From: Ministeria vibrans ATCC 50519
Lineage: Eukaryota; Protista; Filasterea
Assembly (NCBI GenBank): GCA_943704425.1
Contig: CALSCP010001426.1
Coordinates: 1 to 38,340, forward strand
DNA: 38,340 nucleotides
Reading direction: 5' to 3'
Below the pieces are notes generated by a model that worked only from the letters and a program-made list of their open reading frames with translations, did not search any database and was not told the origin of the DNA. The translations under genes were made by a program, and so were the position numbers. Shown here one piece after another: positions 3,201 to 37,198 of the stretch (the stretch's first letter is position 1; every line of letters starts with the position of its first letter).

Positions 3201-6200
3201 GCCCAGGAGAATCGAGCCGTCAATCTGACATGTGTAGGTGAACGTGGTCGCACCCGAAATGCGACCCGTCAGCGAGTAACTCGTGTCGCACGTATACTCG
3301 GCACGTGTACCAACGGAAAACACGGGGGGCAGCACACGTGTCGCATGTGCCACATTGGGCAGTGTTGTGCTACTGCAGAGAGTCAGCGTCGTCTCACAGT
3401 TGACGCCAGTGCGCTCATCTGAGCAAGTGCAAGAGTACGTTGGATGTGAACTGACACATGTGCCATCACCTTGACAAGGCGAAGAGTCACATGCATTGAT
3501 GGGAGAAGAACAGAGTGCATCGGAGTAGCCTGTAGCGGAGCAGTCGCACGAGTAGGTCCCTTCCGCCTCCTGTTCACACACACCACCATTTTGACACGGC
3601 GACGAGGCACACTCGTCAATGTCCACATCACAAAGAGTACTCGTAAAGCCCGCCGCACATGTACACGCAAAGGAAGCAACTCCATCGGAACATTGTGCCC
3701 CATTGTGACACGGAAACGACGAACACTCATCAATATTTCCGTCGCACTGCGCTCCAGTGTATCCCGCAGCACACGCGCAGGCAAACGAGGCAACACCATC
3801 CGTACACGACGCCCCATTGCGACACGGTGATGAAGCACACTCGTCAATGCTTGACTCACAAAGTGTGCCAGTGTAGTCCTTTGCACAGTTGCAAGAAAAG
3901 GAGAACGTATGATCGAAACACTCCCCACCATTCTGACAAGGAGAAGAGTCACACTCGTCACTGTTGACGTCGCACAAGGTTCCAGTAAAGGCAGTGAGGG
4001 TGCAGTCACACAAAAATATACCCACTGACGGCTGGGTGCACACACCAGCGTTCTGGCAAGGTGATGATGCACACTCGTCAATATCATCGGAGCACAAGAA
4101 ACCCGAGTAGCCTTGAGCACAGACACAGGTAAATGCATTGGGGGCGTCTACACAGGTGGCAGCGTTCTGACAGGGAGACGAAACGCACTCGTTAATGCTG
4201 ACATCGCAGCGAGTCCCAGTGAACCCCACCGGGCACACGCACATGTATTCAGCTACTCCGTCGACACACGTGGCACCGTTCAGGCATGGCGACGAAGCAC
4301 ACTCGGCAATGTTCATCTCACACAATGTGCCCGTTTGGCCCGCCTGGCATATACACGTGAAAGACGTTCCTACAGATTGGCACGTCGACGCACCCCGGCA
4401 TGGATTGCTCAAACAGTGGTCCACAACCGAATTGCAAATTGTGCCTGTGAATCCGGTCGACGAACAGTCACAAGTAAACTGTGACACCAAATTAGAGCAC
4501 ACTCCGCCNNNNNNNNNNNNNNNNNNNNNNNNNNNNNNNNNNNNNNNNNNNNNNNNNNNNNNNNNNNNNNNNNNNNNNNNNNNNNNNNNNNNNNNNNNNN
4601 NNNNNNGCATGGATTGCTCAAACAGTGGTCCACAACCGAATTGCAAATTGTGCCTGTGAATCCGGTCGACGAACAGTCACAAGTAAACTGTGACACCAAA
4701 TTAGAGCACACTCCGCCGTTCCGGCACGGTGAAGATGCGCACTCATCAATGTCGACGGAACAGAGGCCACCGGTAAAGCCTGCGACGCACGAGCAAGCAA
4801 ACCCATCGACCCCATCGGCGCATGTGGCACCGTTCTGGCACGGTGACGACACGCACTCATCAATGTTCTCGGCACAAGTCAAGCCTGTAAACCCCGCAGC
4901 ACAGCTGCACATAAAGGATGCAACGCCGTCCGAGCAAACACCGTCATTCTGACATGGTGAAGATGCGCACTCATCAATGTCGACGGAACAGAGGCCACCG
5001 GTAAAGCCTGCGACGCACGAGCAAGCAAACCCATCGACCCCATCGGCGCATGTGGCACCGTTCTGGCACGGAGATGAGACACACTCGTTCAGGTTCACGT
5101 TACACATGGCACCGGTAAAGCCTGCGGCGCAAGTACATGAAAATCCATCAACCCCATCAACGCATGTGGCGCCGTTCTGGCACGGTAACGACGCGCACTC
5201 GTCAATGTTCACGTCGCAGAGAGTGTCAGTGAAACCCACCGAGCAGGCGCACGTGAACCCGTCTACAGTAACAATACACGCGCCATTGAGGCCGCATGGA
5301 CTCGACGCACACTTGTCAATGTTGACGTGGCAAAAGGCGCCCGTGAAGCCGACGGGGCAAGAACAAACGTGTTTACCAAGTCCCGAGCTCGTGCCTGTCA
5401 CAACAAGTTGCCCTTGCATTGACCTATGAATCTCGCACTGATAGAAGATGGTACCCTCGCTCGTTATGACTTGTTCATACGTAGATCCGACTGGAAGGGG
5501 GCCGGAGTCAAACGACATGGGGCCCGCATGCGTAGTGACCGTGTGAGGCACCGAGGTGATGGTCCAGCGAACCGTGTCACCGACGCTGACGTTGTTTGAT
5601 GCAGGTGTACACGATTGACACCATGGAATCTCGATAACTCCTAACTCAACGCACGTCCCGCCATTCTGGCACGGATTCGAGTTGCACTCCTCGATGTTAA
5701 TGTCACATCGAGTGCCGGTGAGGCCAATTGGGCACGTGCACGTAAATGATGTTTCCACCGACTGGCACGTCGACGCACCCTGACATGGATTGCTCAAACA
5801 GTGGTCCACAACCGAATTGCAAATTGTGCCTGTGAATCCGGTCGACGAACAGTCACAAGTAAACTGTGACACCAAATTAGAGCACACTCCGCCGTTCCGG
5901 CACGGTGAAGATGCGCACTCATCAATGTCGACGGAACAGAGGCCACCGGTAAAGCCTGCAACGCACGAGCAAGCAAACCCATCGACCCCATCGGCGCATG
6001 TGGCACCGTTCTGGCACGGTGACGACACGCACTCATCAATGTTCTCGGCACAAGTCAAGCCTGTAAACCCCGCAGCACAGCTGCACATAAAGGATGCAAC
6101 GCCGTCCGAGCAAACACCGTCATTCTGACATGGTGAAGATGCGCACTCATCAATGTCGTCAGAACAGAGAACACCGGTAAAGCCTGCGGCGCAAGTACAT

Positions 6201-9200
6201 GAAAATTCATCAACCCCATCGGCGCATGTGGCGCCGTTCTGGCACGGTGACGACACGCACTCATCAATGTTCTCGGCACAAGCCAAGCCTGTAAACCCCG
6301 CAGCACAGCTGCACATAAAGGATGCAACGCCGTCCAAGCAGACACCCCCATTCTGACAGGGTGAGGATGCGCACAAGTCCGAATCCACGTCACACACGGA
6401 ACCGGTACCTTCAATGCAAACACACAAATATGCATCCAACTCGTCGACGCATGTGGCAGTGTGGTGACACGGAGATGAGGCACACTCGTCAATTTGAGTG
6501 TTACAATGTAAGTCGGTGTAGCCGGCAGCACAAGTGCACATGTATGTTCCAGCAGAGTCGGTACATGTAGCCCCGTTTTGACACGGAGATGAGATGCATG
6601 GCGTTTCGAACGCGACATGAATCACTCCTGCCATGAGGCTCTGGTGAAATGCACACTCAAAGGGGAAATCACCCGTCGCGTAGAATACGAAGGAAAAATT
6701 CGCCCCTGGCAGTAGACTGCCACTGTCAAAGACACTCGGTGAATCTGTTGACGTCACGGTGTGCTCGAACTCGTCGGTGACAGTCCATGTCACGGTGTCA
6801 CCAGGTGCCACGGTGGTAATGACGTCGTTTCCGGCAGTATTGCAAATGAGAAAGAGACACCAGTCAATGTGGTGAACGATACCCGAGGGAACAAGCGGCG
6901 CGAGGGTGCCATTGACACAAAATGCAACGTCGGGAGTACATGCGCAAACATACGAGTCCAGGCCGTCGATACAGGTTGTGCCTGTAAGACAGGGGCTCGA
7001 TGAACACTCGTCAACGTTGGTGGAGCACTGCGGGCCAGTGAAGCCAGCGGCACAGGCGCACCTAAAGCCGGACACCAGGTTGGCACAGGATGCGCCATTT
7101 TCACAGGGAGACGAAGCACATTCGTTTAGATCAAAGTTGCAGAGTACGCCTGAAAATCCGTGTGGACAGACACACGTGAATACGCCAGCATTGTCAATAC
7201 ACGTCGCAGATTGCTGACAGGGCGACGAGTCACAACTGTTCACGGCAAGCGAGCAGTCCACGCCATCGTGCCCCGTGCCGGTGCAGTCGCAACTGAAGCT
7301 GTCGACACCGTCGGAGCACACACCACCGTTGAGGCAGGGCGACGATGTACACTCGTTCAGACTCGCAGAACACACATCACCGGTAAAGCCCGACGCACAG
7401 GTGCACGCAAACGCATTGGCCAAATCGATGCAGGTCCCAGCATTTTGGCACGGTGACGAGGCACACTCCATCATGGCCACGTTGCAGAGCGTGCCCGTCG
7501 TGCCTGCTGTACACGTGCACGTAAACGCGTTAAACATATTCGTGCAGGTGGCTCCCAGTTGACACGGCGACGAGGCGCACTCGTCAACGTCGCTCTCGCA
7601 CAGGGCCCCAGTAAATCCCTCGGCGCAGGTGCACACAACGGAGCCCGCGCCAGCGTTCACACAAGAACTCGCACCGTTTTGACAGGGTGACGAGGCACAA
7701 TAGTCAATTGTCGACTCGCAGAGGGTGCCTGTAAAGGAAATAGGACACTGGCAGTGGGCACTGGCCACGTTTGGATCTGACACGACGCAGGTTGCGCCGT
7801 TAAGACATTCCAAGGAGTCGCATGGGTCGGTGCAAACACCAGGCACTGAGGTCAGAATTCCCTCGCGTGTACACGTCAAGTTGAAGCTTGCAAAGGCGCG
7901 AATACCGTGTAAACCTGTGAGAACGGGGCATGTGAATACAACCGTCTCGTCTAGCGACAAATCTGTCGTATTGCTGGGCGTGGCCCCTCCTGCAATCGAC
8001 GAGGGCACGGAACATACAGCGGTTGTGTGACATGCCAAGTCGGGTGTTGATTCAAAGTTCAGCGTCGCACCCTCGGCAATGGTCAGACGTCTACCATCGG
8101 TAGCACGCAAATGACCAATGCTGGCAGTGGCATTTGCAGCAATGACGATGGTGACGTCGGGCGTGGTGCTGTTTAAATCGACGAACATGGCGGGACAAGG
8201 CACAGCGCCTGAGGCCCACTGATGCGGGTCGTTCCACAAGCCATCGCTACTGCCTTGCCAGTAGGTGTAGAAAGTTTGGCAGGCGGGACGAGTGGAAAGA
8301 TCCCACGTGAACGCCCCCGAGCTGGTGCACGTCGGCATTGTGAAGGAGACGACACCATACTGGCCGTCCACCCAGTAGAGTTCGTCGCAGACGTAGATGA
8401 GCGGTTCAAGATAGCGGGCAGTTGTGGCGGGTTGACCATGGGGAAGGTCGGGGGCCGGATCGCATTCAATGGTCGTGTCGCAGTCAACACCCTCGTAACC
8501 TGTGACACACTGCTTGAGACCATCTGACGCACAGGTGTAGGTGGGACCAGCCAGACAAAACACGGTGCAGGCCTTGGGAACATTGCCGTTGGGGTAGTAG
8601 TTGGGAGAGCATGTGCGCTCGCCCGTTTGTGGGTCGCACGTATACGCGACAGATCCCGGATCACATTCACGACAGTTGGGACCGATGTGGTTTTCGAGGC
8701 ACGTCACCTGAGCATCGAAAGTAACGGTGTTCCAATCGTTGAGAAAGACAGATTTAGTGTAACGAGTCGAGGAGGACGCGGTAAACGCTGTGCCAAAGAC
8801 CTGTCCCGTTGGCGTGGGACTGGTAAGAATGGGGGATGTGCTAATTAGGAGGAGAGGAGAGTGAGTCACAGAGTCGACGGAACACACACACACACACACA
8901 CACACACAACGTACGTTCCCTGCCGGTCGTCCGCGAACGGCGAATCGTCATCGATGCACTCGATCCGCAGGGTTATGATCGCCAGCGTAATCCTGTTTTG
9001 GCTGATGTACGTCTCCCCGTCTGTAACTGTTCCAAATTGCCAACTAAGCGAGGTTTTTTTTTTTTCAGTACATTTTTGTCGGAAACAAAAACAGCGGGTG
9101 GGGCACAGCAGAGAGGGGTATTGTGATGAGGATGAGGCATGGTAGTATGTCGCATGAAAAGGAAGGTACCTGGGGGTGTTTGTGTCCTGGATAGACGGCA

Positions 9201-9393
9201 AATCCTTGCTGGAGAATTGCGAGAATGAATACAGATTGTTGCCTGCATTCACAGCGATGCGGCAGTAGATGTCGCATGCGTTGAGAAAGTCGCAGTTGTC
9301 AAAGGTTCCAGCTATGAGGGACACGTCGACGCGATAGCCGACCTGCGCGACGCAGCAGGGCGCGAAGAGCAGCGCAAACACAACCCACAGCAT
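247..9393 (-). CDS. Multi-exon receptor tyrosine kinase with C2, DSL-like, sushi, EGF, cupredoxin and ZU5 ectodomain
   Basis: Signal peptide [16 protein letters not shown]. In-frame GT-AG splices join 9393-9170, 9043-8915 and a long exon from 8840 (interrupted by N gap 4509-4606) to ~1305. At least 32 EGF repeats (CxSSPCxNGxxC). TM segment [22 protein letters not shown] followed by RRHRRR. Tyrosine-kinase motifs [31 protein letters not shown] and [16 protein letters not shown] lie in small 3' exons. Stop at 247. Confidence 0.93.
4398..6250. repeat. Near-identical internal duplications of EGF-coding blocks around an assembly gap
   Basis: 4398-4508 equals 4607-4717 on either side of the N gap. 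~4608-4985 recurs at offset +1176 (identical alternative-frame ORFs 4614-4952 and 5790-6128). Confidence 0.9.
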
Positions 9394-18867: not shown

Positions 18868-21800
18868 TTAGCGCCAAGCAACCTTGCCAACGGTGAGCAG
18901 TGCCTTGTCAAGCGCCGCGGAACGAGTGCCATCGCCCACCTTCCACTCGCCCGGTCGCTTCTCGCGCAACACTATGGACGTGACAAGCAAGGATATGCCG
19001 CTCTTGCTACAGCGCAGTCCAGGGCTCAGCGACACCTCATTGCGCCCAATGCATAGATGTAAACGGTCGGGCACGGCAACCACCGCTCCTTTGGCCAGCC
19101 CCACGCCGCCCGGTGATACCTCTGTGATGGTGCCTCGCTGGGCTCGCCGCAGTCGTAAGGTGCCGTTTAAAAAGGTTGGCGAGGCTGAGGCCGCGCCCCC
19201 TGACACATCCGGCTCCCATGCGTCAATGTTCGGCGGAATGATGCGGTCGAGCAGCGTCATAAAGTCATCGACGGCATGCATATTGGTGCGCACATCGCTG
19301 AGAAAGCGGGTGCGTGCCTCGAGAGCACGTGCCGCCAGTTCTTCGGGCGACGGCAGCACAAATGGAGGTACGGCCGCGTCGAGGAGTGTGGTGAGAGAGG
19401 CGCTGTTGGGCACGTAGGTGTCCTCTTCGAGAGCCTCCGTGTGGAGTACGTTAGGAACGTTGTCGCACACGCGAGTGCTCGCGAAGCGTTTGGTACTGTT
19501 ATTTGACGCGATCGTCTCGAGGAAAGACAGGCAGCGCAGCAGACCTGTCCAGCTACCGACGCGCGCTGCGCGACGCCACTCGGACAATTCACTGTGTAAT
19601 TGACTGATGGTAAATGCCTCGTAGCGAATGTAGTGCTCGAGGGCAATGAAAATATCGGCTCCATTGAGACGGGCCTCCATTTCGGCGACGGTGGTTGCAC
19701 CCGCTCGAATGGTTCCCGAGAAGTGAGGTATGGCAAGCGACGAGCGCGTGCGACTGGGCATGGCAAGCGGCGCAGGACGCGAGGATTTGCGTGGGTTGCC
19801 CAGCGAGACGGCTGAGCGCGGCGGAATCTCGGGAATGGCGGTGTGCGCATGACCATCGACAGGGACACTGCTTATCTCGGGCAGCTGGTCACTGCCGGTG
19901 TCGTTGGACGAGACGTCGGTGATGTCTGCGCCATCCTCGAGCGCGTCGAGTTCCAGCCGTGTGTCAGGCACGGTTGTGCCAGCACCTCTGTTCAACTGCG
20001 ACGATACTGATGTCGTCGCCCCAACCGCCGCGAGTGCGGTGTTGTCCGGCTCGACGTCGGCAGTACTTGTGGGAACAGTATCGACCACACTTGCATAGGC
20101 TGGAGCCGGTCCAAGATCCGCCATCTCCTCCTGGTCATCCTCTGTGTCTGCCCCGGCTGCTGTTGCCTCTTCTTGGATGTACCTGAGTGGTGGTGGCACC
20201 GGCGGCACATCCGTCTCAAGCTCGTCGTCGGGCTGCGCCACAACGACCATTTTTACGCGACGCTGCCAGGCGGCGCGCCGTTCCATCCAACTCCCCATCA
20301 TCACGCCGGCGTCAACCAGAGTTCTCTCGACAGCCAGCAGACGTCGCTTGACGGCTTGGCGATCGCGGGCAACATCGGAAGCTTTGGCATACATGACGAT
20401 GAGCATGGCCAACACGCCAAAAATGACAAGGTAGCCACAGAGCAGCATCACATAGACACGACCCGACGTGGTCGAGCGGAAGACTGTCTGAGCGAGCAGC
20501 AGCGAGAGCGCGGTCCATGCCGACAGAGCATAGCCGGTCGCCTTTACCAGCCACATGGCCGTCGAGTTGACGGGTGCGTAGCCGTAGAGGCGGGGAAAGA
20601 GAGCGAGGGAAAAAAGGAGAACAAGCGAGAGCGCAAGCAAAAGAGAGAGTGCGACCACGGGCGCCTGAGATCCGAGAAAGACGGCACATATGACCATCAT
20701 GGCCTTGATCAGACTGCTGAGCGCCGAGAAAAGACGAGCCGTGCGCAAGTCTACGTCGGCCGTGCCATCACTCAGTCGGTAGCTAATGCCCAAAATGACG
20801 GCGGTGATGGTGTACCAGGCAAAAGCAAAGAATCCCACGGCAGCCATGGTGGAGTGCGAGCCGGTCCAGCACACAACAGAAGGATCGTCGCGGAGCAGTG
20901 CGGGCGCCGCGTTGGTGCAGGCGAGCACGGAGAGTAAGCTCTCGCAGACGGTAACAAAGAGCACGTCGCCCAGAAGAGAGGCAAGCAGTCGCCAGCCAAC
21001 GGACTTGCGAACGGTGTCGCGGGGCACGTGATCAACGACCCGCTCAAGCACTTCGGGCGCCGAAATGGTCAAGACCCACAGGGCAAAGAGCGCCACGGCC
21101 AGCCACAGGCGTACTTCGACCGAGCCAAATCCGTCGTTGAAAAGGAGGCCACGTGCCGCCGTCTCAAGACCGTGTGCCAGCGGAATCAACAGGTTAGGCA
21201 ATGAGAAGGAGAGCGCAACCAACTGGAGCGTCTCCAACAGCTCGCCTGCCAGCACAAGCACATTAGCCCAGTTCCAGCGGACAAACTTGAAAGGCTCGGC
21301 GGGCGCCTCGCGCGCTGATTGACGAGGCAGCAGAACGAGAAGGGTACCAAGGAGGGCTAAGCTAAAAGAGAGGGTGGCCACGAGAGGCAGGGACACATTA
21401 CCCGCTGCAATCCAGCTCGATGCGAGGTCGAGTGTAAACCAGAGAGGGAAGGCCATGGAGAGGACTGCAAGCACGGCTGCCACCACAACCGAGAGAGTCG
21501 CCGAAAAGTGCTCTTTGAGAGCGCGCTGAAAGGCCTCGACAGGGAGCAATGCGGACCAGAGCAGCGTCGCAACCAGGAAGCGATAGGTGCTCCAGCGCGT
21601 GAGGAGCGACAAAGCCTGTGAGATGTCCTCGAGCACGTCGGGTGGATACTCAAGAGCCCGATCACGCGCGAGTCGCCACGAGCGCTGTTGGAAGAGATCA
21701 CGAGCAAGGTCGGAGAGAAGTGGAAGGGCACGCCACACACACACCAGAGTGAGAAGAATGGAGAAGACCCCGGCAGCGTCGCGAGCGTATTCGCGCAGGG

Positions 21801-24509
21801 ATTCAATGGCAATGTCACGACGGTCGTACCAACGGCGCTGAGTGTCGCGCACGAGCTGGGGAAAGCGATAGATGCCAAAGAGATTGAGAAGCACAAGCGA
21901 GGCGTACACAAAGGAACCGTGTGTGAGGCACGCGACCACCACGGAGCGAGTTTCGGCACGCGTCCGCGACGACAAACCCGTCTCGCTGGCCCACAGGGGT
22001 ACGGATGGTGACTTGAAGTCAGCAAGATCGGAGTGTACCTGTTCAAGAACACTCGCCAAGGATGCTTCATCCTTGGCAAGTGTCATCAGGTTGGCACGGT
22101 GGCACGTGTCGTCGGGTCGGCGCACAAAAGCCACCTCGTGCTTGAGACGTGCCTGAAGGAGACGTACACGTTCGCTTCGTTCGAGCCAGACAAGTTTGTG
22201 GAGCAGGTGACCAAACCGAGCAGACTCTCCAAGCGACCCAAGTTCGTTGTGGGCGTCAAGCTGCGCCTGAAGCAATTCCACGTAGCGCGAGTGGAGTGCG
22301 TCACGCAGGGAAAGCGAGTACGCTGTGCGTTTGATGGATGTGCTCAGCAAATCTGCCGCCTGGGCGAGCGCTTCGGCGCGCTCTGCCTCGACAATGCCCA
22401 AGACCGTCTCGACAATGCGGCGCTGGCGGCGATGGTCGTGGTGGACGTCATCTTCGAGAAGATGCACAAAGATGGCAATGGGACGGGCACACACAAGGAC
22501 AAGGAAAAGAAGGAGATGCACCAGGTCGATGAGAAAGAGACGCGCCTCGCTGACCACTGTGATTTCAAACTCCTTGTAAAAATCGGAGGAGGAAGCAAGC
22601 GCACCCAAGAGTGACATAGTGCGCAGGCCCGTGAGTGCCAGAAACAGGGCAATGGCAAGCAAAGGAATGTCAATGAGGAGCAGGGCAAACTGAGTGGCGA
22701 TTTTGCGACGGAGGGGCCAGGCACTGAGCGATGTGACAGGGGACGCCTCGAGAGCCGCACGTTGTCCAAAAGGCGAGTGGTCGGTGGGCATGGCGGAGGC
22801 GGTGATGGAGGCACCTGCGTCAATACCAGCACGGAGGGCGGCAGCCGTTGCTTGCTGCGCCTGGCGACGGGCACGTTCAGATGCCCACTTGGCACGTACC
22901 TTGCGGATGGTGCGGACGAGAGGAGGAGAACGCCAGAGGGTAACAAAGACGAACAGCGCTAGCAACAGTACGCAGGGGTCGACGAGCGTCACAAAGGCAT
23001 GGTAGACGAGGCGGAGGCGAACGTCGTGTTGGCGTGTGCGACTGTCGTGACTGCTGGCGTTGTCGGAGTCGAAGGGACGCGCAAAGAAGCGGCCGCGGTA
23101 CGGAGCGGCGACAATGGCACAGAGGAGACAAGGCACGTCGAGGACGAAAAGACCCGCCTCAATGAAGATGAGCTCGCGTACGTTGTTCTGCGTCCACTTC
23201 CAGTTGATGTGACGCACCTGATCGACGGCAAAGTAGAGTCGCCAGGTGAGCAGAGCCAAGGGCAACACCGCAATGGTGGCAATGTCTGCGACGAGCAGAA
23301 GGAGGTTTTCAAAGACAAGGCTACGCGCGTCGCGAAACATGGAACTTGTCCAGGTTTTGTCGCCGGGAAGAGCATGACGGCGCAGATCGCGCACGAGAAA
23401 GGGCAGACGGGTGGTGCAGCAGAGAGCAAGACCAAGGAGAAGACAGGGCAGGTCGGCAAAGAGGACGAGAAAGCAGTGGCGTACAATGACAAAGCGCATC
23501 CTCAGACCCAACTTGTCCCCCTTGACAGCGGCCATTTTCGCGCGGACTAGGCGATGTCGCCACGACAGCAGCACAATAATTCCGGTGGGCACAAAAACCA
23601 AGTCGACAAAGAGCATTGCAAAGTGTCGCAGGATGATGGAGCGGTAGTCCCAGACAATACTTGAATTGTGTTGTTTGACAGCCCGCAAGTCGCGCCAGAG
23701 TGCCAGGCACCGCCAACCAGTAACGTGAAGCACAAGGAAGGGTGGCAGAACAAACACCAGGTCAAAGACAACCAGGCAAAACATCTGAACACAGAGAAAG
23801 CGACTGAAAGACGAAAATAAAAAGGGGAAAACGAGAGCGAGAGCAAAGTGAGAAGAGGTACGGAGAGCGAAGTGTGTATGTGCGTGAGAAAAAGAAGTGG
23901 GAGGGACAAAGTGATAGAGAGTGAGTTTGAAATTTGAGAGAGTGTGTTTGAGAGAGAGAAAGAGAGAAAGAGATAAAGAGAGTGAGAGAGAGTGAGAGTG
24001 AGAGAGAGTGAGAGAGAGTGAGAGAGAAAATGATGGAGAGAGATACAAAGATAACAAAATAAGAGAATAACAGAAGAACGTAACAAAGTATGAGAGAGAG
24101 AGAAGAAGCGACAAAGAGAAGAGGAAGAGAAAAGTAGCAAAGTGGAAGAAGATAACAAAGTGATAGAAACAGAGAGCGCAAGAAAGAGAAACAGAGAAAT
24201 AGAGAGAGTGCGTGCCCGACAGAGGACAGACGGTGACAGGCACCGTGTAGAAGTGTGCGCAGCCTTACTCGCAATCCCAGTCAGTCAATTCTTTGACGAG
24301 TGTTCGGAATTTGTAGACAGTCAGAAAGACAACGAGCCCGCAGACAAGGCATATCCCATCCAAGAGACGCTCCCCAAGAAACTCGAGCACCGTCCATATC
24401 GACCACAGCGCCTACATCGCCAGAAGTGTGAGTTTCAAAAAAACCGATTCTTATTTTGGAAGAGGCAAACCTTCTTGATCACCCAGGCGACCGCCTCAAT
24501 GAGTTCCAT
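18868..24509 (-). CDS. Large multipass membrane protein of unknown function with ~10 hydrophobic repeats
   Basis: Long coding exon ~23784-18868. The ORF's N-terminal CT-rich part is intronic. Probable start MELIEAVAWVIKK at 24509. Many TM segments and a LRDDPSVVCW..H motif. Confidence 0.75.
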
Positions 24510-30150: not shown

Positions 30151-33100
30151 TTAGTGCGCACGCGTGGTGTAGGTTGTTGTGGTGGTGGTGGATGAAGAAG
30201 GGGCGGCAATAACGGTGGTGGCGGAGCGAGAAAGAGTCGGGGGAGGTACGTAGGAGCGCGAAGAGGAGGTGACGGTGGAGCTCAAGGGTGCAGCTCCCGC
30301 GTTATATGAAGAGCGAACAAAGGTACCGCCGGCAGATGCAGATAATGGGCCTGTGCTGCTTGCAAGAGTGGTGGTGAATCGGCGACTGATCGCAGCAGTT
30401 GACGATTGAGTGGGGCCGCCTTGAGCAGCTTTTATAGCACTGCCTCGACAAGCAGTGGGACGCTCGTCGTCATACCAACCAGCAGCGCCTGAGTCACGAC
30501 GGCCCATGCTGGCGGCGGTGGAAGAGCGACGGGACGACTCGCGCTTATAGTCAGGTTTGTAGTGGTGTGGTGCCGGTGTGTTGGTCTTGTATGCATTGAC
30601 CTCTATAAATATATAAAAATATAATTATAATAATAATAACCCCCCACCCAAGAAAAAAAAAATAATAATATTAAATCATTATTGTAAAATTAATTATTAA
30701 ATAGCAAAACCAAACCAACTTTTACTAAATAACAAAAACAAACAAGTTATTACAAATCAAAGGAAAGGGGTACGGGGAAAACCTTGGTTTGCCCCAAAGG
30801 TTACTCGGTTACTCAATTAAAAAAAACAAAAAAACAATTCTACAGCGCTACTACTTTTTTTATTACAATACTTTAGTAACTTTAGTAACTTTTATATTAT
30901 TCTACTATCTATACACTCTAAAGAGGTTACTAAAGAAGTTACTAAAGGTTACTCAAGTTACTAAAGCATCAGAAAATCCATCATACTACCCTGCCTCTTT
31001 TCTTTCATTTTGATGTCTTTCGACTGATGTTTCTATACTAAGGTTTGTAATACATTAACGGCAGTGTGGTCCACGGGCTGTGCAGAAGATTGATCGTCAG
31101 AAAGCTCGTCTATTTCAGAGTAGGCGGTGAAGTTTGGATAACGCTGTTTAGACAGTGCTTGGAGTGCTTTGAGAAATTTTTCGAAGAGAGACCTGCCGAA
31201 AACTTGCAGCTCATGATGCGAAGCTCTGACACCCAAATGATTTAGGTGGTCGTAGTCGGAGTCCATTTTTTGAACGAGCAACTGAAACTTCGCTGGAACG
31301 TCCACGAAAGCGCATGAGATGTTCAGGCTCTGCGCACGATTTCTGATCTTCACCAAATGCCTCAATGAGGCGATGGATTCCTGCCACCCAGGGGAGTGTT
31401 CATCGAGCATTGAGGTCATCTTCTCAATTAAAGGGCTCAGTTTTTCTTTCGCTGAAGACAATAAAGAAGTGATACGAGAGTAGTCTCTCATAGATTGCTG
31501 GTCGCCTCTTTGCTGATGGTCACTAGTAAGAGTTTCTAAACAGCTGATTCCCTCGAGTAAGCTGGGATAGCTGATGTTCGCATTCTGCGCTTCTCGAAGC
31601 AGGTTTTGAATAGCTTCACGTAATTCCGTCATCTTCAGTAGATCGAGACGACTGCTGAGTTCAGACTTTTGTTTTTCCATGACTATCGAGTCGAGACCCT
31701 TACGTACTTCCTCCATTGCCTCCGTATACTGCTGATGAGCCGTCTCGAAATTGTTCAACCAAGTCCTCACAAAATGAAACACAAACAGGCCCTTCAGATT
31801 CAATCCAAACGCATCGAGACTGTCCGCGTCATGGCCTGAATATAGGGTGGCCAGAGTGGATTCCAGAGCTACTGAAGACCAATTAGACGGCTTAATATAC
31901 ACACCAAAGGAAAAAACCCACCGCATCGTTTGTGTAAAACAGACCAGTAATAGAATGGCAGCCGTCACGAGAACAGCCAAACGAAAAGACATGATGTGAT
32001 CGACACTGCATAAGGCTTGTACGTAGATAAATGTCGTGCTGTTCAGCATAGAACTTCCATAGAGGAAATGAGAGCGATACGTATCGCACTCCCCGTTTTT
32101 CAATTCAAATTGGCTTGTGGTGAAGTCAGCACACACGGTGCAGTCAAAACTGGTATTTTTCTTCAAAGGGATACCATAGACAAATAATAGCACTATATAT
32201 ATGATAGAGACCAGACAGAGGATGACCGAAAGGAGACAAGCAGTGTATGAACGGCGGACAGCACCAGCAGACATGTTTGCAATCGGATTTGCGAGAACAG
32301 ACTCCAAATCGCTCGATTTCTTCTCCTTGATATAGATCTCAGTCAAGGCGACGATATTACGCACGTTCTCGAAATGGGGTGCAAGGATAATGAAGAAAAG
32401 GAGGGCAACGAGGAGGGAAATGGCTATGAACACACCTGCGTTCAACGCTTCAAAATTGCTGCGATTCTCACCAAATTCCGTTGCAACACTGCATCGAGTG
32501 TTCAGCCATGCACGTGTCGAAGACAGGTTCGTCGACGAGATGACTGGGACACAGGCAAAATCCGCAGGGAAGAACAGAGAGAGGGCGTTCAAAATAATCA
32601 GAAAACCACTCGTATACACAAGCAAACGCAAAAACCACGGCAAGGGAACACCCAATAGCGAGTTAAAGTATTGACGGTCGACAAGACTTTCCATTATCAC
32701 AACGAGATGTGAACAAGAATGAATTGTAGACGTATTCAGTATTCACTATCCGAAATTCCTTTTTTGCATCAAAAGTACACAATCCATTTGTACTACAGAC
32801 ACGTTTTTTTGTTTTTTGTCGCTCCACATCTGCACTCCACACGTTAAATGGGTTGTATTCTAGTAAATTTAATATTATTATACTATCTATCCACTCTAAA
32901 GAGATTACTAAAGTGGTTACCAAAGGTTACCTACTTAACTTTGAGTAAATCTATCAGAACACACACCTGCCATACTGCCTCTTTTCTCAGGTGCAGTGAT
33001 TTGCCCCCTTTGCAATAAACAACACATCAATATTTTATTTTGAAAGTTGACAGGTAAAAAGGCCATAGTGTATTAAAATTGAATCACTCATCTGTCGGCG

Positions 33101-36100
33101 GACACATATAGCCAGTGACGTAGGAAACGGGCAAATAGCGCTTGTCCTCACGATCGATAGTATCGTTGCAAGAGTCCCTGGCCTGTTGGTCATATTCTCT
33201 CAAAAGAGGGCCAAGGTAGCTGAATTGAGTGCTGTGCAGATCGAGCTTTGGCTGTTGCACTTTGAGCTGGCACAAAGCGTATGTGGTACACGATATAATT
33301 TCGTTGTTACCACACCGCAACGAATGAGACTTTTTATCCGCCTCTGAGGATGCGAACACTGTCCATTCACATGGCATATTAGCCGATGTCATTTCGCCCA
33401 TGGGCTCTTGGTAGTGCAGTCCTGAAGCAGCATAAGTCAATTGAATAGCCTTCATAACCGCCATTTTTCAAAACGGGACACTTGTATTTCAACATTTTCT
33501 TATGAAATATGCCTTTCTTCTCAGTCTTATAGTTATTAGTTGAACACCACTCACTATAAGCTCTGAAAGCATCACCATTGGTAACAAAATTCTTTGACTT
33601 AGATACCTTCGCTTTAATAAATTGTTGTGTTGTGTCAAGATGTGAGACATACTTTGTAAATTCTTCGTTCACAAAAACAGATTCCGTGAATTTCTTTGTT
33701 TTGTAGACTCGCACTGCTCCTTGAACCAGAAAAGTAAAGACTTCATTCAAGTACTTCTTCAGTATGTCATCCAAAAATTGTTCGTCACGTCTTCTTTCCA
33801 TTGGTTTCGTTGGTTTCTGAACGAACATGTAATTAAACGGCATCAATTTGCATCGGTTCATCATTGGTTCTGAGTGATTCCAAATGGGCTTGTCATTTCC
33901 AATGAGTAACATTTTTACCATCAGTCTGACAGTGAATAATTCATCCCTCATTCGTCGCATGGAGATAGTGTCATCACCTGTGATAATCTTGATTGTTTTT
34001 TCGTTCAAAACACATTCAGACATCTCAGCGAATGTTCCCAAATGTTTGTTTAAAACTTGAATCAACTCTGGTGTAGGGCCATTGCTAACTTTACTGCTCA
34101 TACTAGCAAATAACGACTCACTAACACTGGTGTGTAAATGACTACCAAGGATTCTCTCCAAAACTTTGAGGAGACTCGATTTACCATTATTGCCGTCTGG
34201 CCCAGACATTAGAAAGAAACACTTCATAAAATTCCATGGGGATATCATGTAGCCAAATTGCTCTTGGTATCTACGCAATGTGTCTGTGTCATTTGGTGGT
34301 AGGAACGACTTGAAAAGCTTTTCAGCATGTGTTGTATTGTCTGTCAGAGTCACATCAAGAGTGAAATCGAAATAGTCTTCTTTAACACGTTCTCTTATCG
34401 AACCATCACGCAAATCAACACATGCCCCGTTCGCTATCGGGAGACAGTTCTTACTACTGTTAAAATGAAAGTTTTCATCTCTGATTAGGTTGCCAAGCAA
34501 CTGGTACACTGCTTCAAGATAGGATTTCCCATTAATCTTTTGTTTCAAATCAACCATCCATTTAGACTGCTCTGGCTCTAGGAGCAACTTATATTGTTCC
34601 ATGAGAATGATATTGACTATTTTCAAGAGTTGTGGCTTTTTCTTCACTTCCCACAACAGAGTCGTCGCGTTCCACAAATGTCCACTCATTAAGTCTGATT
34701 CCAAGATTAGAATGCCACTGTTTTCAACAATAGTGGAAGCTCCAGTATGGCCGTTCGAGAAGAGTTCTTTATTGTCCATGTGTATGTAATAATTATCTTA
34801 TATCTATTATAATTATTATTTCTTTAAATATTAAACGAATTACGAAGCGAATTATATATCTGCCTTAAGGAGGATGTGCTTTAACGTTTTTGAGTTGAAA
34901 TGATTCGTTAACGTTACAAATTGCTTGTGATATTTGGTTTGTTTATGTTTCCATAAATTGGATTTTGTGGTCGTCTTCCCACATTCGCACTCAACTGGCT
35001 GATATAAATCAGGCCTTCCTTTGTCCTTATGTGATTCATAGTATCGCTTATTGTACTCCTTTGTATTGGTCATTACATAATAATGAGATTTAATCTTTAA
35101 GTCTTAAACGTACGTTAAGGAATCGATGTTTGTAAAAAGTGGTTTGATTTTGCAAGGGGCAAACCAAGGTTTTCCCCGTACCCCTTTCCTTTAAAAAGAG
35201 GCAGTAGGGCACATAGGGGGCGCTTTTTTGCCCCTTTAGTTTCCAAATTTTGGTTGGTCAGGTCGTTCGTTGGTTAGTTTATATATATGACTCTATTATT
35301 TAACACTTTTACACTAAATAATAGTATGTATATCTCTATAAAGTGTAAAAGTGTAAAACGTGTAAGGTTCGGTTGGCAGGTGAAAGATGCTGTTTCCCCA
35401 GCTGAACCTAAAAGTTTTTACACTTATTCACAATTCAATTTCTCCTGAAGTTTGCACTCTAACATGTTGGTGAAAAGTAGTGTAAAATATAATGTAAAAT
35501 TAAAAAAATAGTGCTAATCTATTTTGTGATTTGTAATAACTTGTTTGTTTTTGTTATTTAGTAATAGTTGGTTTGATTTTGTTACTTAATAATTAATTTA
35601 ACAATAATGAATCTCATATTATTATTTTTTTTTCTTGGGTGGGGGGAATAATAATAAAAAAAAATATAAAAAAGTTTTATTAGTACCTTTTCCTTCCTTA
35701 TGACGGTAGTGGGCGAGAGAGGAAGCAGGGGGCGCCTTTCCATGGGCATACGTGTGACCATCGCCTGTGCTGTATGTGTTGGGCGCGGGCGTGGTCGACG
35801 AGCGCGCGGCGGTGCGTGTGTGCATGCCTGACGAGGGTGCTGTGCGGAAGGACGATTCAACTGCCGTCTTTCCAAGCAGTTCCGGTGCTGCATGAGCGTT
35901 GGGTGCCGGGTTCTCGCCCACGAGTGCTACGAACCATTAATATTGAATTATTTTTCTCATACATGTACAGGGCTATAACAATCGTTTGCGTATAATAGAC
36001 AAGACAATCACATGTGATTATTTAATTTGCCCCGTACTTGTGCGGTGCGTGTGCTTCACACCGAAACCATAGCTTGGCGCTCGCCTCTTATCGGAAAAGT

Positions 36101-37198
36101 TACCCTCGGGCTTGTATTGAGAGGGGGCAGGGACGTCGGGCACTATATATAAAAACATGGGTCACTGAACATTATCAGCTGATATTAAAAATAATAAATT
36201 TATTATTATTATTTATTATTAATTGTTGGATTGTTAATACGCGTTGAATAATTGGGCAGTTTGGTGCGTCCTTGGCACGTGTGCTGAATGGTGTCTGACC
36301 AACCATCCTTGGCACGGCGATTGACCTTTGGGTTGACCGCGGCGGGGCCAGCGCCGAGGCGCATTCCGTACAAATCTAAAGGGACCCAAGAAGATAAAAA
36401 AAGGTTGGGTCAAGCTTAGCTTGGACGTATTAAGGTGAACGATCGGAGTGTGGAATGATAGTGACAACTTATAAGTTGCAATAATAATACTAGTGAGAGC
36501 GGTCCTTTTTCGAGCCTGACCATGAGGCGTTGAATTAATCGGCGAGGAGGTGGTTGAATATGTAATTGGCGTGGTGGTGGTTTGGTGGTGGTTTGGTGGT
36601 TTGGGAATGTGTTGATTGTTTTACCTGTCTCGATGCCACCGACGGAAAGACGAGATCCAAACGAATAGGCGGGGCCTCGTTTGCGTCTAGGATCGTGCTG
36701 TTGACTCTGGCCAACGAGAGTGGGAAGCGCATATGTTCCTATTGAGAAGAGGAAGAGAAAAAAAGAATTGCAAAGTTAACAAAAGGTACTGAAATGACTC
36801 CTTTAGGAATAATCTGAGAGGAATCCGCTAGGCTGCATTCAGCACTAGACGGCATTATGTATACTCGCCACGTAAGGAGGTAGAAGAGAACACGCGGATG
36901 AAAAGCGGCGATGAATGAAAAATATTTGACATTCCTTGACAACGCGTCGGACGCGCCCAGCAACGCCCACGCACGAGTGGGTTTCGTGCAAACGGTATCA
37001 TGAGATGTGTGCCATCCACTGGTTAAGTGCAATGGCGAGTGCGAGCGTGTGCTTTTAGCGGCAATTCCAACGATGTGGGCGGGGGCACTTTCCTCACTTG
37101 GCATTGGGTGTTCCTTGGGTGTTTTTTTTTCTTTTTTTTTGTTAGCTCATACCAGGACCGGGGTTCGGCGGCTTTGAAGCAAAGCAATGCGATGGCAT
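30151..37198 (-). CDS. ODF3/SHIPPO-1/CIMAP1-like ciliary protein with PGP/PAP-x-x-Y repeats (6 exons, ~363 aa)
   Basis: Exons 37198-37153, 36738-36625, 36375-36241, 36142-36038, 35926-35687 and 30602-30151, all GT-AG and phase 1, splice in frame (1092 nt): MPSHCFASKPPNPGPGTYALPTLVG..RGPAYSFG..GAGPAAVNPK..VPAPSQY..APSYGFG..NPAPNAH..TPAPNTY..KEGKE|VNAYKTNTPAPHHY. Confidence 0.85.
30640..30759 (+). repeat. Left terminal inverted repeat
   Basis: Reverse complement of 35527-35646 with about 9 differences by manual alignment. Confidence 0.93.
30759..30795 (+). repeat. 37-bp GC hairpin motif, exact inverted copy at 35156-35192
   Basis: AAAGGAAAGGGGTACGGGGAAAACCTTGGTTTGCCCC. Stem GGGG-a-AAACC / GGTTT-g-CCCC. 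Confidence 0.9.
30796..31005. promoter_or_regulatory. Iteron-like GTTACT array (putative replication origin), degenerate direct copy at ~32870-32990
   Basis: Eight GTTACT/AGTAAC copies in direct and inverted orientation around TACTATCTATACACTCTAAAGA, ending in CTGCCTCTTTTC. Confidence 0.55.
31033..32694 (-). CDS. Four-TM pannexin/innexin/LRRC8-like large-pore channel homolog with helical C-terminal tail (intronless, ~553 aa)
   Basis: LPW-TM1, loop 1 with FACVP...WLNTRC, TM2 ending APHF, Y..C-TM3, loop 2 with FDCTV...ALCSV, TM4 followed by RWVF. Topology and Cys placement follow the pannexin-like fold. Confidence 0.65.
   Translation of the reverse strand: MESLVDRQYFNSLLGVPLPWFLRLLVYTSGFLIILNALSLFFPADFACVPVISSTNLSSTRAWLNTRCSVATEFGENRSNFEALNAGVFIAISLLVALLFFIILAPHFENVRNIVALTEIYIKEKKSSDLESVLANPIANMSAGAVRRSYTACLLSVILCLVSIIYIVLLFVYGIPLKKNTSFDCTVCADFTTSQFELKNGECDTYRSHFLYGSSMLNSTTFIYVQALCSVDHIMSFRLAVLVTAAILLLVCFTQTMRWVFSFGVYIKPSNWSSVALESTLATLYSGHDADSLDAFGLNLKGLFVFHFVRTWLNNFETAHQQYTEAMEEVRKGLDSIVMEKQKSELSSRLDLLKMTELREAIQNLLREAQNANISYPSLLEGISCLETLTSDHQQRGDQQSMRDYSRITSLLSSAKEKLSPLIEKMTSMLDEHSPGWQESIASLRHLVKIRNRAQSLNISCAFVDVPAKFQLLVQKMDSDYDHLNHLGVRASHHELQVFGRSLFEKFLKALQALSKQRYPNFTAYSEIDELSDDQSSAQPVDHTAVNVLQTLV
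33084..33464 (-). other. Short ORF or possible captured gene fragment overlapping the helicase 3' end
   Basis: 126-aa ORF with no recognised motif. Confidence 0.3.
33379..34779 (-). CDS. D5-like (poxvirus D5 / P4 alpha type) superfamily-3 helicase lacking the primase domain
   Basis: D5_N-like LPIANGACVDLRDGSIRERVKEDYF, Walker A GPDGNNGKS, Walker B TFAE, motif C LLIGNDKP, Arg finger MNRCKLMPF, and winged-helix-like AFRAYSEWC. Confidence 0.92.
   Translation of the reverse strand: MDNKELFSNGHTGASTIVENSGILILESDLMSGHLWNATTLLWEVKKKPQLLKIVNIILMEQYKLLLEPEQSKWMVDLKQKINGKSYLEAVYQLLGNLIRDENFHFNSSKNCLPIANGACVDLRDGSIRERVKEDYFDFTLDVTLTDNTTHAEKLFKSFLPPNDTDTLRRYQEQFGYMISPWNFMKCFFLMSGPDGNNGKSSLLKVLERILGSHLHTSVSESLFASMSSKVSNGPTPELIQVLNKHLGTFAEMSECVLNEKTIKIITGDDTISMRRMRDELFTVRLMVKMLLIGNDKPIWNHSEPMMNRCKLMPFNYMFVQKPTKPMERRRDEQFLDDILKKYLNEVFTFLVQGAVRVYKTKKFTESVFVNEEFTKYVSHLDTTQQFIKAKVSKSKNFVTNGDAFRAYSEWCSTNNYKTEKKGIFHKKMLKYKCPVLKNGGYEGYSIDLCCFRTALPRAHGRNDIG
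34852..35073 (-). CDS. Small viral-type zinc-ribbon/C2H2-like protein
   Basis: KEYNKRYYESHK followed by VECECG...NLWKHKQTKYH, a pattern typical of small NCLDV/PLV/virophage ORFs. Confidence 0.75.
   Translation of the reverse strand: MTNTKEYNKRYYESHKDKGRPDLYQPVECECGKTTTKSNLWKHKQTKYHKQFVTLTNHFNSKTLKHILLKADI
35193..35526. promoter_or_regulatory. Second iteron-like module with GTGTAA/TTACAC repeats
   Basis: Begins AAAAGAGGCAG (reverse complement of the CTGCCTCTTTT box), followed by a GGGGGCGC-T6-GCCCC hairpin and repeated GTGTAAAA/TTTTACAC. Confidence 0.5.
35527..35646 (-). repeat. Right terminal inverted repeat
   Basis: Reverse complement of 30640-30759. Confidence 0.93.

Follow-up and report, generated by a model that had tools for sequence, protein, structure and literature searches.

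The window, a stretch of 38,340 nt, corresponds to positions 1-38,340 of contig CALSCP010001426.1 from Ministeria vibrans ATCC 50519 (GCA_943704425.1). At 30640-35646 it contains a mobile element of 5,007 bp bounded by terminal inverted repeats (TIRs), delimited by these repeats and by its junctions in DNA contigs. Inside the element, on the minus strand at 31033-32694, lies an intact, intronless open reading frame (ORF) of 553 amino acids (aa), open from its ATG. It encodes a protein with four transmembrane (TM) segments, likely a channel subunit of the pannexin/LRRC8/innexin type, as judged from the ORF, its hydropathy, a natural relative (P0002) and structure models. A preceding interpretation made from the letters alone (the sequence-only reading) had described an intact, intronless channel gene carried as cargo in a probable non-metazoan host; as far as an intact, intronless four-TM gene is concerned, this description is borne out by the 553-aa ORF, which lies inside a TIR element with a viral-type helicase.

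The membrane protein, its relative and its second copy

The protein consists of four hydrophobic helices, two Cys-bearing loops and a long tail, all read from the minus strand. Kyte-Doolittle maxima at aa 24-42, 86-104, 154-172 and 234-252 correspond to the four TM helices that the sequence-only reading had named. TM1 (32569-32625) is immediately preceded by P19-W20, TM2 (32383-32439) is followed by a Pro, TM3 occupies 32179-32235, and TM4 (31939-31995) is followed by W259, conserved in the alignment with LRRC8-type domains. Loop 1 (32440-32568) carries C48 within FACVP and C68 within WLNTRC, a predicted helix at residues 57-67 and sequons at N56 and N77; the two loop-1 Cys, the Pro-Trp before TM1 and the Pro after TM2, all claimed earlier, are located at these residues. 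Loop 2 (31996-32178) carries the conserved C185 and C229, predicted strands at 183-189 and 223-229, the extra C188 and C203, and sequons at N180 and N218, giving N-glycosylation sequons in both loops. Every motif cited by the sequence-only reading is present. The remainder is a predicted helical cytoplasmic tail of about 280 aa (31036-31887; about aa 270-553), delimited by model, Pfam and copy comparison. No leucine-rich repeat (LRR) was matched in the tail with Pfam, and its helices are modelled at low confidence. The GC content at third codon positions is 0.52 in the channel ORF versus 0.60-0.67 in two host ORFs.

P0002 is the sole match among 1.84 billion representatives (482 aa, E 1.3e-9, 26-28% identity), a singleton from a 2.3-kb contig. 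It keeps the four TM segments, P-x-PW, C48, C68, C185, C229, W259 and one loop-1 sequon, and lacks the loop-2 insert bearing C188 and C203, its own loop-2 Cys being C181 and C194. Because P0002 retains just two of the loop-2 Cys, C185 and C229, the Cys pattern of the family is 2+2, not 2+4; the four loop-2 Cys reported by the sequence-only reading (C185, C188, C203 and C229) are all present in the window protein, but only two of them are shared. A word-index search with the full protein returned no relative (7,999 candidates scored), and with the two-row profile, the query profile of the family searches, it returned P0002 only. Exact look-up of five element and ORF sequences in the collection gave no match, no channel-profile locus was confirmed among 439 metagenome and 131 viral contig pattern matches, and the innexin-motif scan of viral contigs gave 0. 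PDB sequence searches yielded chance matches only.

Contigs from 8 of the 13 listed sequencing runs were compared, among them runs X6-X9 and X11, whose RNA label is a guess (presumed-RNA runs). Contigs identical to the channel ORF are present in four presumed-RNA runs of one study, a fifth presumed-RNA run from another study covers part of the ORF, and matching contigs also occur in DNA runs of two studies. The X6 contig stops at 30969, 64 nt beyond the stop codon, in 19 T absent from the genome, as a poly(A) tail would give. These contigs, one of them with a poly(T) end, speak for expression of the gene to the extent that the guessed label holds.

A second genomic copy, about 87% identical, is found in both DNA and presumed-RNA runs. 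It differs from the ORF at 57 positions over 448 nt, at 45 over 344, and at 109 plus 6 gaps over 630, and for about 1 kb beyond its stop codon it runs on in DNA that does not resemble the element. Neither copy appears to have an intron. With a second expressed copy in a different context, the gene is therefore not unique to this element. The variant rows listed (40/208 and 40/249) comprise 50 distinct sites within the ORF and may mix more than one extra copy. Among these rows, 26 synonymous and 9 non-synonymous codons fall in aa 1-300, compared with 2 and 9 in aa 507-545 (Fisher p 0.0015 for the contrast), and in aa 54-103 synonymous changes account for 19 of the 24 changed codons versus 25% expected (p 4e-8). 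Purifying selection acts on the membrane domain, and the tail end changes fast between the copies. Since synonymous changes predominate in aa 1-300 and aa 54-103 of the second copy, the gene is functional; since, in addition, a natural relative keeps the pattern, the combination of four TM segments and Cys goes beyond chance.

Loose ends suggest a third locus that shares sequence up to 31920 and an alternative 5' end at 32700 in one presumed-RNA contig; a 90-nt skip at 31494-31585, lacking splice ends, is taken as a difference of the second copy.

The 5-kb mobile element

The element has a GC content of 0.39, versus 0.54 for positions 1-30639 of the window. The left TIR (30640-30759, plus strand) starts with CCCCCC and pairs with the right TIR (35527-35646, minus strand) over 121 columns at 92.6%. 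An inner inverted repeat of 37 bp has its left arm at 30759-30795 (plus) and its right arm, 334 bp inside the right TIR, at 35156-35192 (minus), with a 100% match; a search for this repeat elsewhere found no related loci. As the TIRs differ by about 7%, the insertion is old. Both element/host junctions are present in DNA contigs.

Comparison of the flanks reveals an 11-nt duplication on the plus strand, a candidate target-site duplication, with its left copy at 30629-30639 and its right copy at 35647-35657. It is weak evidence, because the 11 nt lie in an AAT microsatellite; with a period of 3, lengths of 2, 5, 8 or 11 nt all fit, and the 11-mer occurs 69 times on the two strands of the window. 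In a choanoflagellate, the duplications made by transposons measure 2 to 9 bp (PMC6875170), and by this analogy capture by a cut-and-paste transposon may be possible. Tested as a non-autonomous MULE/hAT-type transposon, the element presents the TIR and the same ambiguous duplication length, read from a single insertion.

Three iteron modules punctuate the element. Module A (30868-31003) is an imperfect palindrome of short iterons with the poly(A) site at about 30969 (folding z -3.1), module B (32861-32987), which lies upstream of the channel ORF, repeats module A directly at 78%, and module C (35299-35358) is a second kind of iteron palindrome (folding z -3.7). Modules A and C fold better than 200/200 shuffles and module B does not. 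The 553-aa gene is flanked by modules A and B. Loose ends at 32845, 32881 and 32882 indicate other loci that share module B but have different neighbours; together with the 126-aa region described below, they suggest that the element is a mosaic of cassettes. The three iteron palindromes could be helicase origins or recombination sites. A Mimivirus-type hairpin rule was considered for the poly(A) site and dropped, the site lying at the palindrome edge.

The element has four ORFs that are treated as genes, each read from the minus strand, and no further ORF exceeds 135 codons. Besides the channel gene, the largest encodes a D5/P4-type superfamily-3 helicase of 466 aa (33379-34779), recognised by TIGR01613 (E 1.5e-28, below cut-off), PHROG primases (E 4e-42) and the helicase part of C962R of African swine fever virus (E 3.6e-7). 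No primase domain is recognised in its 466 aa, and no related helicase loci were found in viral contigs. A 73-aa ORF (34852-35073) contains a C2H2-like zinc finger (Pfam zf-C2H2 E 0.089, aa 5-73, below cut-off). The fourth, a 126-aa ORF supported by the ORF call and contigs (33084-33464), shares 86 nt with the helicase ORF. It has a second copy elsewhere, whose DNA upstream of 33435 is different and which is the copy represented in presumed-RNA contigs. As the helicase C-terminus extends into the 126-aa ORF, position 33435 may be a mosaic junction and this ORF a fragment of a longer gene. An Rfam search gave no match, and bacterial promoter and terminator scans stayed at chance level.

Capsid, packaging ATPase, integrase/recombinase and pPolB are absent among the matches of the four ORFs to Pfam, NCBIfam and PHROGs. 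From its gene content, the element is likely non-autonomous and derived from a virophage or Polinton-like virus (PLV). With virophages and PLVs it shares the TIRs, a GC content below that of the host, a superfamily-3 helicase and a stand-alone C2H2-type finger (PMC10120064, PMC3671162). It differs in that the known insertions treated in the relevant sections of these two sources measure 15-30 kb and carry capsid genes, whereas the element here is of 5 kb, with major capsid protein, ATPase, protease, pPolB and integrase not recognised. Transpovirons, plasmids of giant viruses, differ in their superfamily-1 helicase. The label of a virus-like element given by the sequence-only reading holds for a small element with TIRs and a viral-type helicase; it is not a complete virus, no capsid, pPolB or integrase being recognised among its four ORFs.

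Probable kinship with large-pore channels

The explanation favoured here, at a probability of roughly 0.57, is that the protein is a divergent member of the pannexin/innexin/LRRC8 superfamily, forms a non-junctional large-pore channel, and is cargo of a non-autonomous, virophage/PLV-derived TIR element lying in an intron of a likely unicellular holozoan host. Taken by itself, homology of the 553-aa protein to this superfamily is likely, if unproven.

In the model of the TM domain, helix 57-67 ends near C68 and strands form at 183-189 and 223-229 (pLDDT about 35-43 there). In this low-confidence model, the loop-1 helix and loop-2 strands are placed as described for Panx1, for which the sections on the outer domain report a loop-1 helix, loop-2 strands and the bonds Cys66-Cys267 and Cys84-Cys248 (PMC7108861). 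Against 350,542 chains, Foldseek ranks PANX1, PANX2, PANX2, INX-6, LRRC8A and PANX1 at positions 1-6, and 23 of the best 48 rows belong to the pannexin/innexin/LRRC8 superfamily. Connexin, CALHM, claudin and tetraspanin do not appear among these best 48 rows, absences that exclude nothing. The full-length single-sequence model was set aside, its Foldseek and VIA lists being meaningless.

Sequence comparison was centred on LRRC8. A motif scan gave 11 loci, comprising three long ORFs confirmed by Pfam as LRRC8-type and eight short or unrelated frames that were discarded; six relatives of one LRRC8-type locus were added, and five LRRC8-type rows define the invariant columns. In the joint alignment, the PW, the four Cys, the TM4 Trp and the subsequent Asp are in register with the LRRC8-type domains. 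Nine of the 26 LRRC8-invariant columns are identical in both the window protein and P0002, a count reached by 3/150 local shuffles at window 8 and 3/150 at window 16, in which Cys positions are roughly kept; the summed invariant-column score is reached by 7/150 and 8/150 local shuffles, and the reversed pair matches 2 columns. P0002 alone matches 12/25 invariant columns, above all 39 overlapping decoy windows (maximum 11), taken from one host membrane protein (window 18868-24243), and above all 60 shuffles (maximum 10). From these counts, the LRRC8 match of the window protein appears only modestly above chance. The spacing of the loop-1 Cys is 20 in the window protein and 21 in P0002, versus 18 in Panx1. 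As a separate observation, metagenome locus L001:23-1618 and P0003-P0008, on short contigs, carry a Pannexin_like TM domain fused to FN3 (PF00041 in 3/6), not to LRRs.

Several results weigh against this kinship. The window protein alone matches 8/25 invariant columns, within the decoy range, and Pfam gives no hit to PF00876 (Innexin) or PF12534 (Pannexin_like) at E<=10. HHalign against three LRRC8-type rows yields a probability of 1% in the wrong register, with scores reached by 46/100 and 33/100 shuffles; the hmmsearch score is matched or beaten by 166/300 and 194/300 shuffles, and the BLOSUM profile score has z under 1. None of the homology tests gives a significant score. The AlphaFold2 models are low in confidence (pLDDT 42.8 and 45.5), the six leading Foldseek rows have E-values of 0.27-0.74 and TM-scores of about 0.2, and the best hit among unrelated viral proteins, at E 0.22, is as good as the pannexin rows; the viral structure library contains no match under E 0.2. 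The superfamily rows are redundant in the PDB and represent three families rather than 23 independent matches. After VIA re-alignment, the best pannexin stands at rank 13 (Z 6.3, root-mean-square deviation 12.3, 183 aligned), below unrelated helical proteins. The K+R counts of 2, 3, 6, 4 and 2 give no topology signal through charge bias, and the RNA label of the runs covering the ORF is, as stated, a guess.

Negative sequence results weigh little here, because a genuine LRRC8 domain also fails to find pannexins or innexins: in a phmmer calibration it finds 26 LRRC8 chains and 0 pannexin or innexin chains at E<=10. Of the kinship claimed by the sequence-only reading, the Foldseek ranks and the 9/26 columns remain in favour, while no test reached conventional significance. 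Profile comparison with Innexin and Pannexin_like, made with Pfam, came out negative, and the Foldseek comparison that it had proposed for a predicted monomer did place the superfamily first, though at weak E-values and from a low-confidence model. A block-chain score with z of about 4 for the two-row profile was rejected, its trace being out of register and driven by columns with a gap in one row; single-sequence block-chain scores are not significant (z 0.5-1.3).

A rather unlikely alternative, and the one that survives best, is an unrelated orphan tetraspan protein (an adhesion protein, receptor, toxin or antidote) with disulfide-stapled loops that became pannexin-like by convergence. It is favoured by the non-significance of every profile test and by the VIA matches: in the wide comparison of the TM model, generic helical bundles, four-helix bundles among the top matches, lead, the best being a designed protein (Z 12.5, root-mean-square deviation 3.3, 182 aligned), and the best 50 rows contain no large-pore channel. 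Moreover, P0002 lacks a usable Atlas match (recognition 1613), and the invariant-column test is dominated by Cys and Trp, with decoys from one host membrane protein only. Convergence is opposed by the joint appearance of PANX, INX and LRRC8 chains, each under 20% identical to the query, at Foldseek ranks 1-6, and by the order PW-TM1-C-helix-C-TM2-TM3-C-C-TM4-W, which is collinear with LRRC8 in both the window protein and P0002.

An improbable variant keeps the large-pore fold and places the protein nearer the connexins, in a four-cysteine form, or basal to the connexin and pannexin groups. The F-x-C after TM1 may resemble a connexin motif, and so may residues of P0002 (within 190-230) that follow its final loop-2 Cys and close TM4. 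The outer-loop fold is, as far as the relevant pages of PMC7108861 state, common to large-pore channels. Connexins are however described, in the corresponding part of PMC11117596, with C-x6-C-x3-C and C-x4-C-x5-C, outer Cys 11 apart. Such spacing is not found here, where the loop-1 Cys are 20-21 apart and the loop-2 Cys 13 or 44 apart, and Foldseek ranks 1-6 are all pannexin, innexin and LRRC8 chains.

It is very improbable that the protein is a true homolog from an animal host or from animal-derived contamination, an odd metazoan paralog. The host tyrosine kinase and EGF arrays are typical of animals too, and LRRC8-type TM domains with other tails (Pannexin_like plus FN3) exist in metagenome contigs; yet the dense genes, short introns, DUF4349, helicase-associated (HA) and BNR domains would fit a protist by their distributions, and DNA contigs link each end of the element to host sequence. 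The diverged TIRs of an old insertion and the N gaps elsewhere in the window might suggest that the ORF is dead, artefactual or the product of misassembly. This is hardly credible given 553 open codons, purifying selection, a distant natural relative and the agreement of contigs from the DNA runs of two studies.

With superfamily membership retained as the favoured explanation, the protein can be compared with the known channels. Like pannexins 1, 2 and 3, the chordate homologs of innexins, it has four TM segments, two Cys per outer loop in the shared pattern, a predicted loop-1 helix leading to the second Cys, predicted loop-2 strands and outer-loop sequons; unlike them, it gives no significant sequence score, has Ser instead of Trp ten residues before the second loop-1 Cys, contains a 30-residue loop-2 insert with two more Cys and a 280-aa predicted helical tail, and is encoded by an intronless gene on a mobile element in a probable protist. 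With LRRC8/VRAC it shares, in register, the P-W before TM1, the four loop Cys, the Trp at the TM4 end and the Asp motif after it; it differs by the absence of LRRs and of a PF12534 hit, by only one Trp of PWW, and by a much shorter loop 1 and inner loop. With innexins and vinnexins it shares the predicted fold, INX-6 being at Foldseek rank 4, and virus-borne innexins have precedents in the intronless vinnexins of ichnoviruses (PMC7016691) and in g155 of a nimavirus (PMC8402728), which in the portions of these papers devoted to them are close copies of arthropod host genes. The window protein differs in having no YYQWV, a motif absent at TM2 in P0002 as well, and no PF00876 hit, and in residing on a 5-kb element without recognised capsid. 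Trypanosomatid unnexins, claimed to be four-TM large-pore channels, carry YYQWV and lack extracellular Cys according to the relevant section of their description (PMC10400985), whereas the loops here are predicted to be Cys-stapled and YYQWV is missing. Because profile similarity, YYQWV, LRRs and connexin Cys spacing are not found, the protein should not be classed with the pannexins, innexins, LRRC8 proteins or connexins.

Proposed channel and host locus

We infer that the protein works like a pannexin. Both termini would be cytosolic, with the Cys loops outside the cell, and loop 1 would be held to the loop-2 hairpin by the disulfides C48-C229 and C68-C185, an arrangement known from Panx1. 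A ring of six to eight subunits would form, its outer mouth lined by the loop-1 helix (57-67). The residue ten positions ahead of the second loop-1 Cys is Ser58 here, Arg in the LRRC8 locus L007 and, in Panx1, a constricting Trp (Trp74); Ser58 would make for a wider, weakly selective and less anion-selective entrance. Loop glycosylation hinders docking in pannexins, as the pertinent part of PMC8769644 reports, and for this reason a single-membrane channel is likelier than a gap junction. N-glycans on both loops would block docking, and ATP, osmolytes or ions would be released outside without coupling of cells. Of defence, ATP release and coupling, the roles named by the sequence-only reading, cell coupling appears least likely given the sequons in both loops.

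The helical tail in place of LRRs could be a gating or sensing module. Such an exchange of tails has precedent, since other LRRC8-type domains carry FN3 instead. The fast change of the tail fits, as speculation, a sensing or gating role in conflict, with ATP release or cell death on infection. The element, having a helicase and no recognised integrase or capsid, would be moved in trans by a separate partner, and the gene would most likely have been acquired as a cassette between the repeated palindromic modules.

A wider proposal is put forward tentatively: mini-elements derived from virophages or PLVs carry, as a movable cassette, the gene for an animal-type Cys-loop channel of a unicellular relative of animals, the family being pre-animal or having entered animals via mobile DNA, and the fast-changing tail of this channel is the sensor of a cell-death or ATP-release pore in defence against viruses. 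Two reviews (PMC9750855, PMC9816575) state, in the relevant passages, that neither innexins/pannexins nor connexins are known from organisms other than animals; the trypanosomatid unnexins are the one claimed exception encountered. A literature search, as far as the retrieved portions of the sources extend, did not turn up a pannexin-type protein with Cys loops described from a unicellular holozoan or from an element of this kind. If the homology is true, the pannexin/LRRC8 Cys scaffold in a unicellular holozoan implies either an origin of the family before animals or horizontal spread on virus-derived DNA, and a gene of one exon, for which both a natural paralog and a remote relative exist, becomes available for testing ancestral function in ATP release, volume control, cell death or coupling. 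Even without homology, the locus presents a membrane-protein family that is under selection and has not been described before, carried by a likewise undescribed 5-kb element with a helicase.

From the flanking sequence, we infer that the element is inserted in an intron of a host SHIPPO-repeat gene on the minus strand. The intron (30603-35686, GT...AG) would measure 77 nt without the element, and splicing from the GT at 35686 to the AG at 30603 would connect the exons on either side in frame. These are the last exon (30151-30602, SHIPPO-rpt E 0.005), in frame with the upstream exon, and a middle exon (35687-35929, 5' boundary approximate, SHIPPO-rpt E 0.02), preceded by an upstream coding stretch (36024-36158, boundaries approximate, SHIPPO-rpt E 1.2e-4, above cut-off). 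In the presumed-RNA runs, contigs cover the helicase ORF and the SHIPPO exons hardly or not at all, which proves no silence, and no joint across the host intron or empty site is listed in the 8 runs compared, which proves no fixation. Sharing its strand with the SHIPPO-repeat gene (30151-36158), the element with its poly(A) site could truncate the transcript of that gene.

The window is eukaryotic, gene-dense and intron-rich, with an EGF-array receptor whose canonical tyrosine-kinase domain is split by short GT-AG introns; further domains, found by scanning 16 pieces against Pfam, are DUF4349, BNR, GATA, helicase-associated and SHIPPO-repeat. Judged by the distribution of such domains, the host is very probably a flagellated, choanoflagellate-like unicellular holozoan. 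A frame of 1,791 codons at 18868-24243 (minus strand) codes for a membrane protein with several passes, in which no Pfam family scores above cut-off. A 300-nt repeat with 100% identity (4608-4907 and 5784-6083) beside an N gap in the EGF array is probably an assembly artefact. The region 247-9393 (minus strand) encodes a very large receptor tyrosine kinase, in which about 30 EGF repeats are interrupted by cupredoxin-like (Copper-bind) modules.

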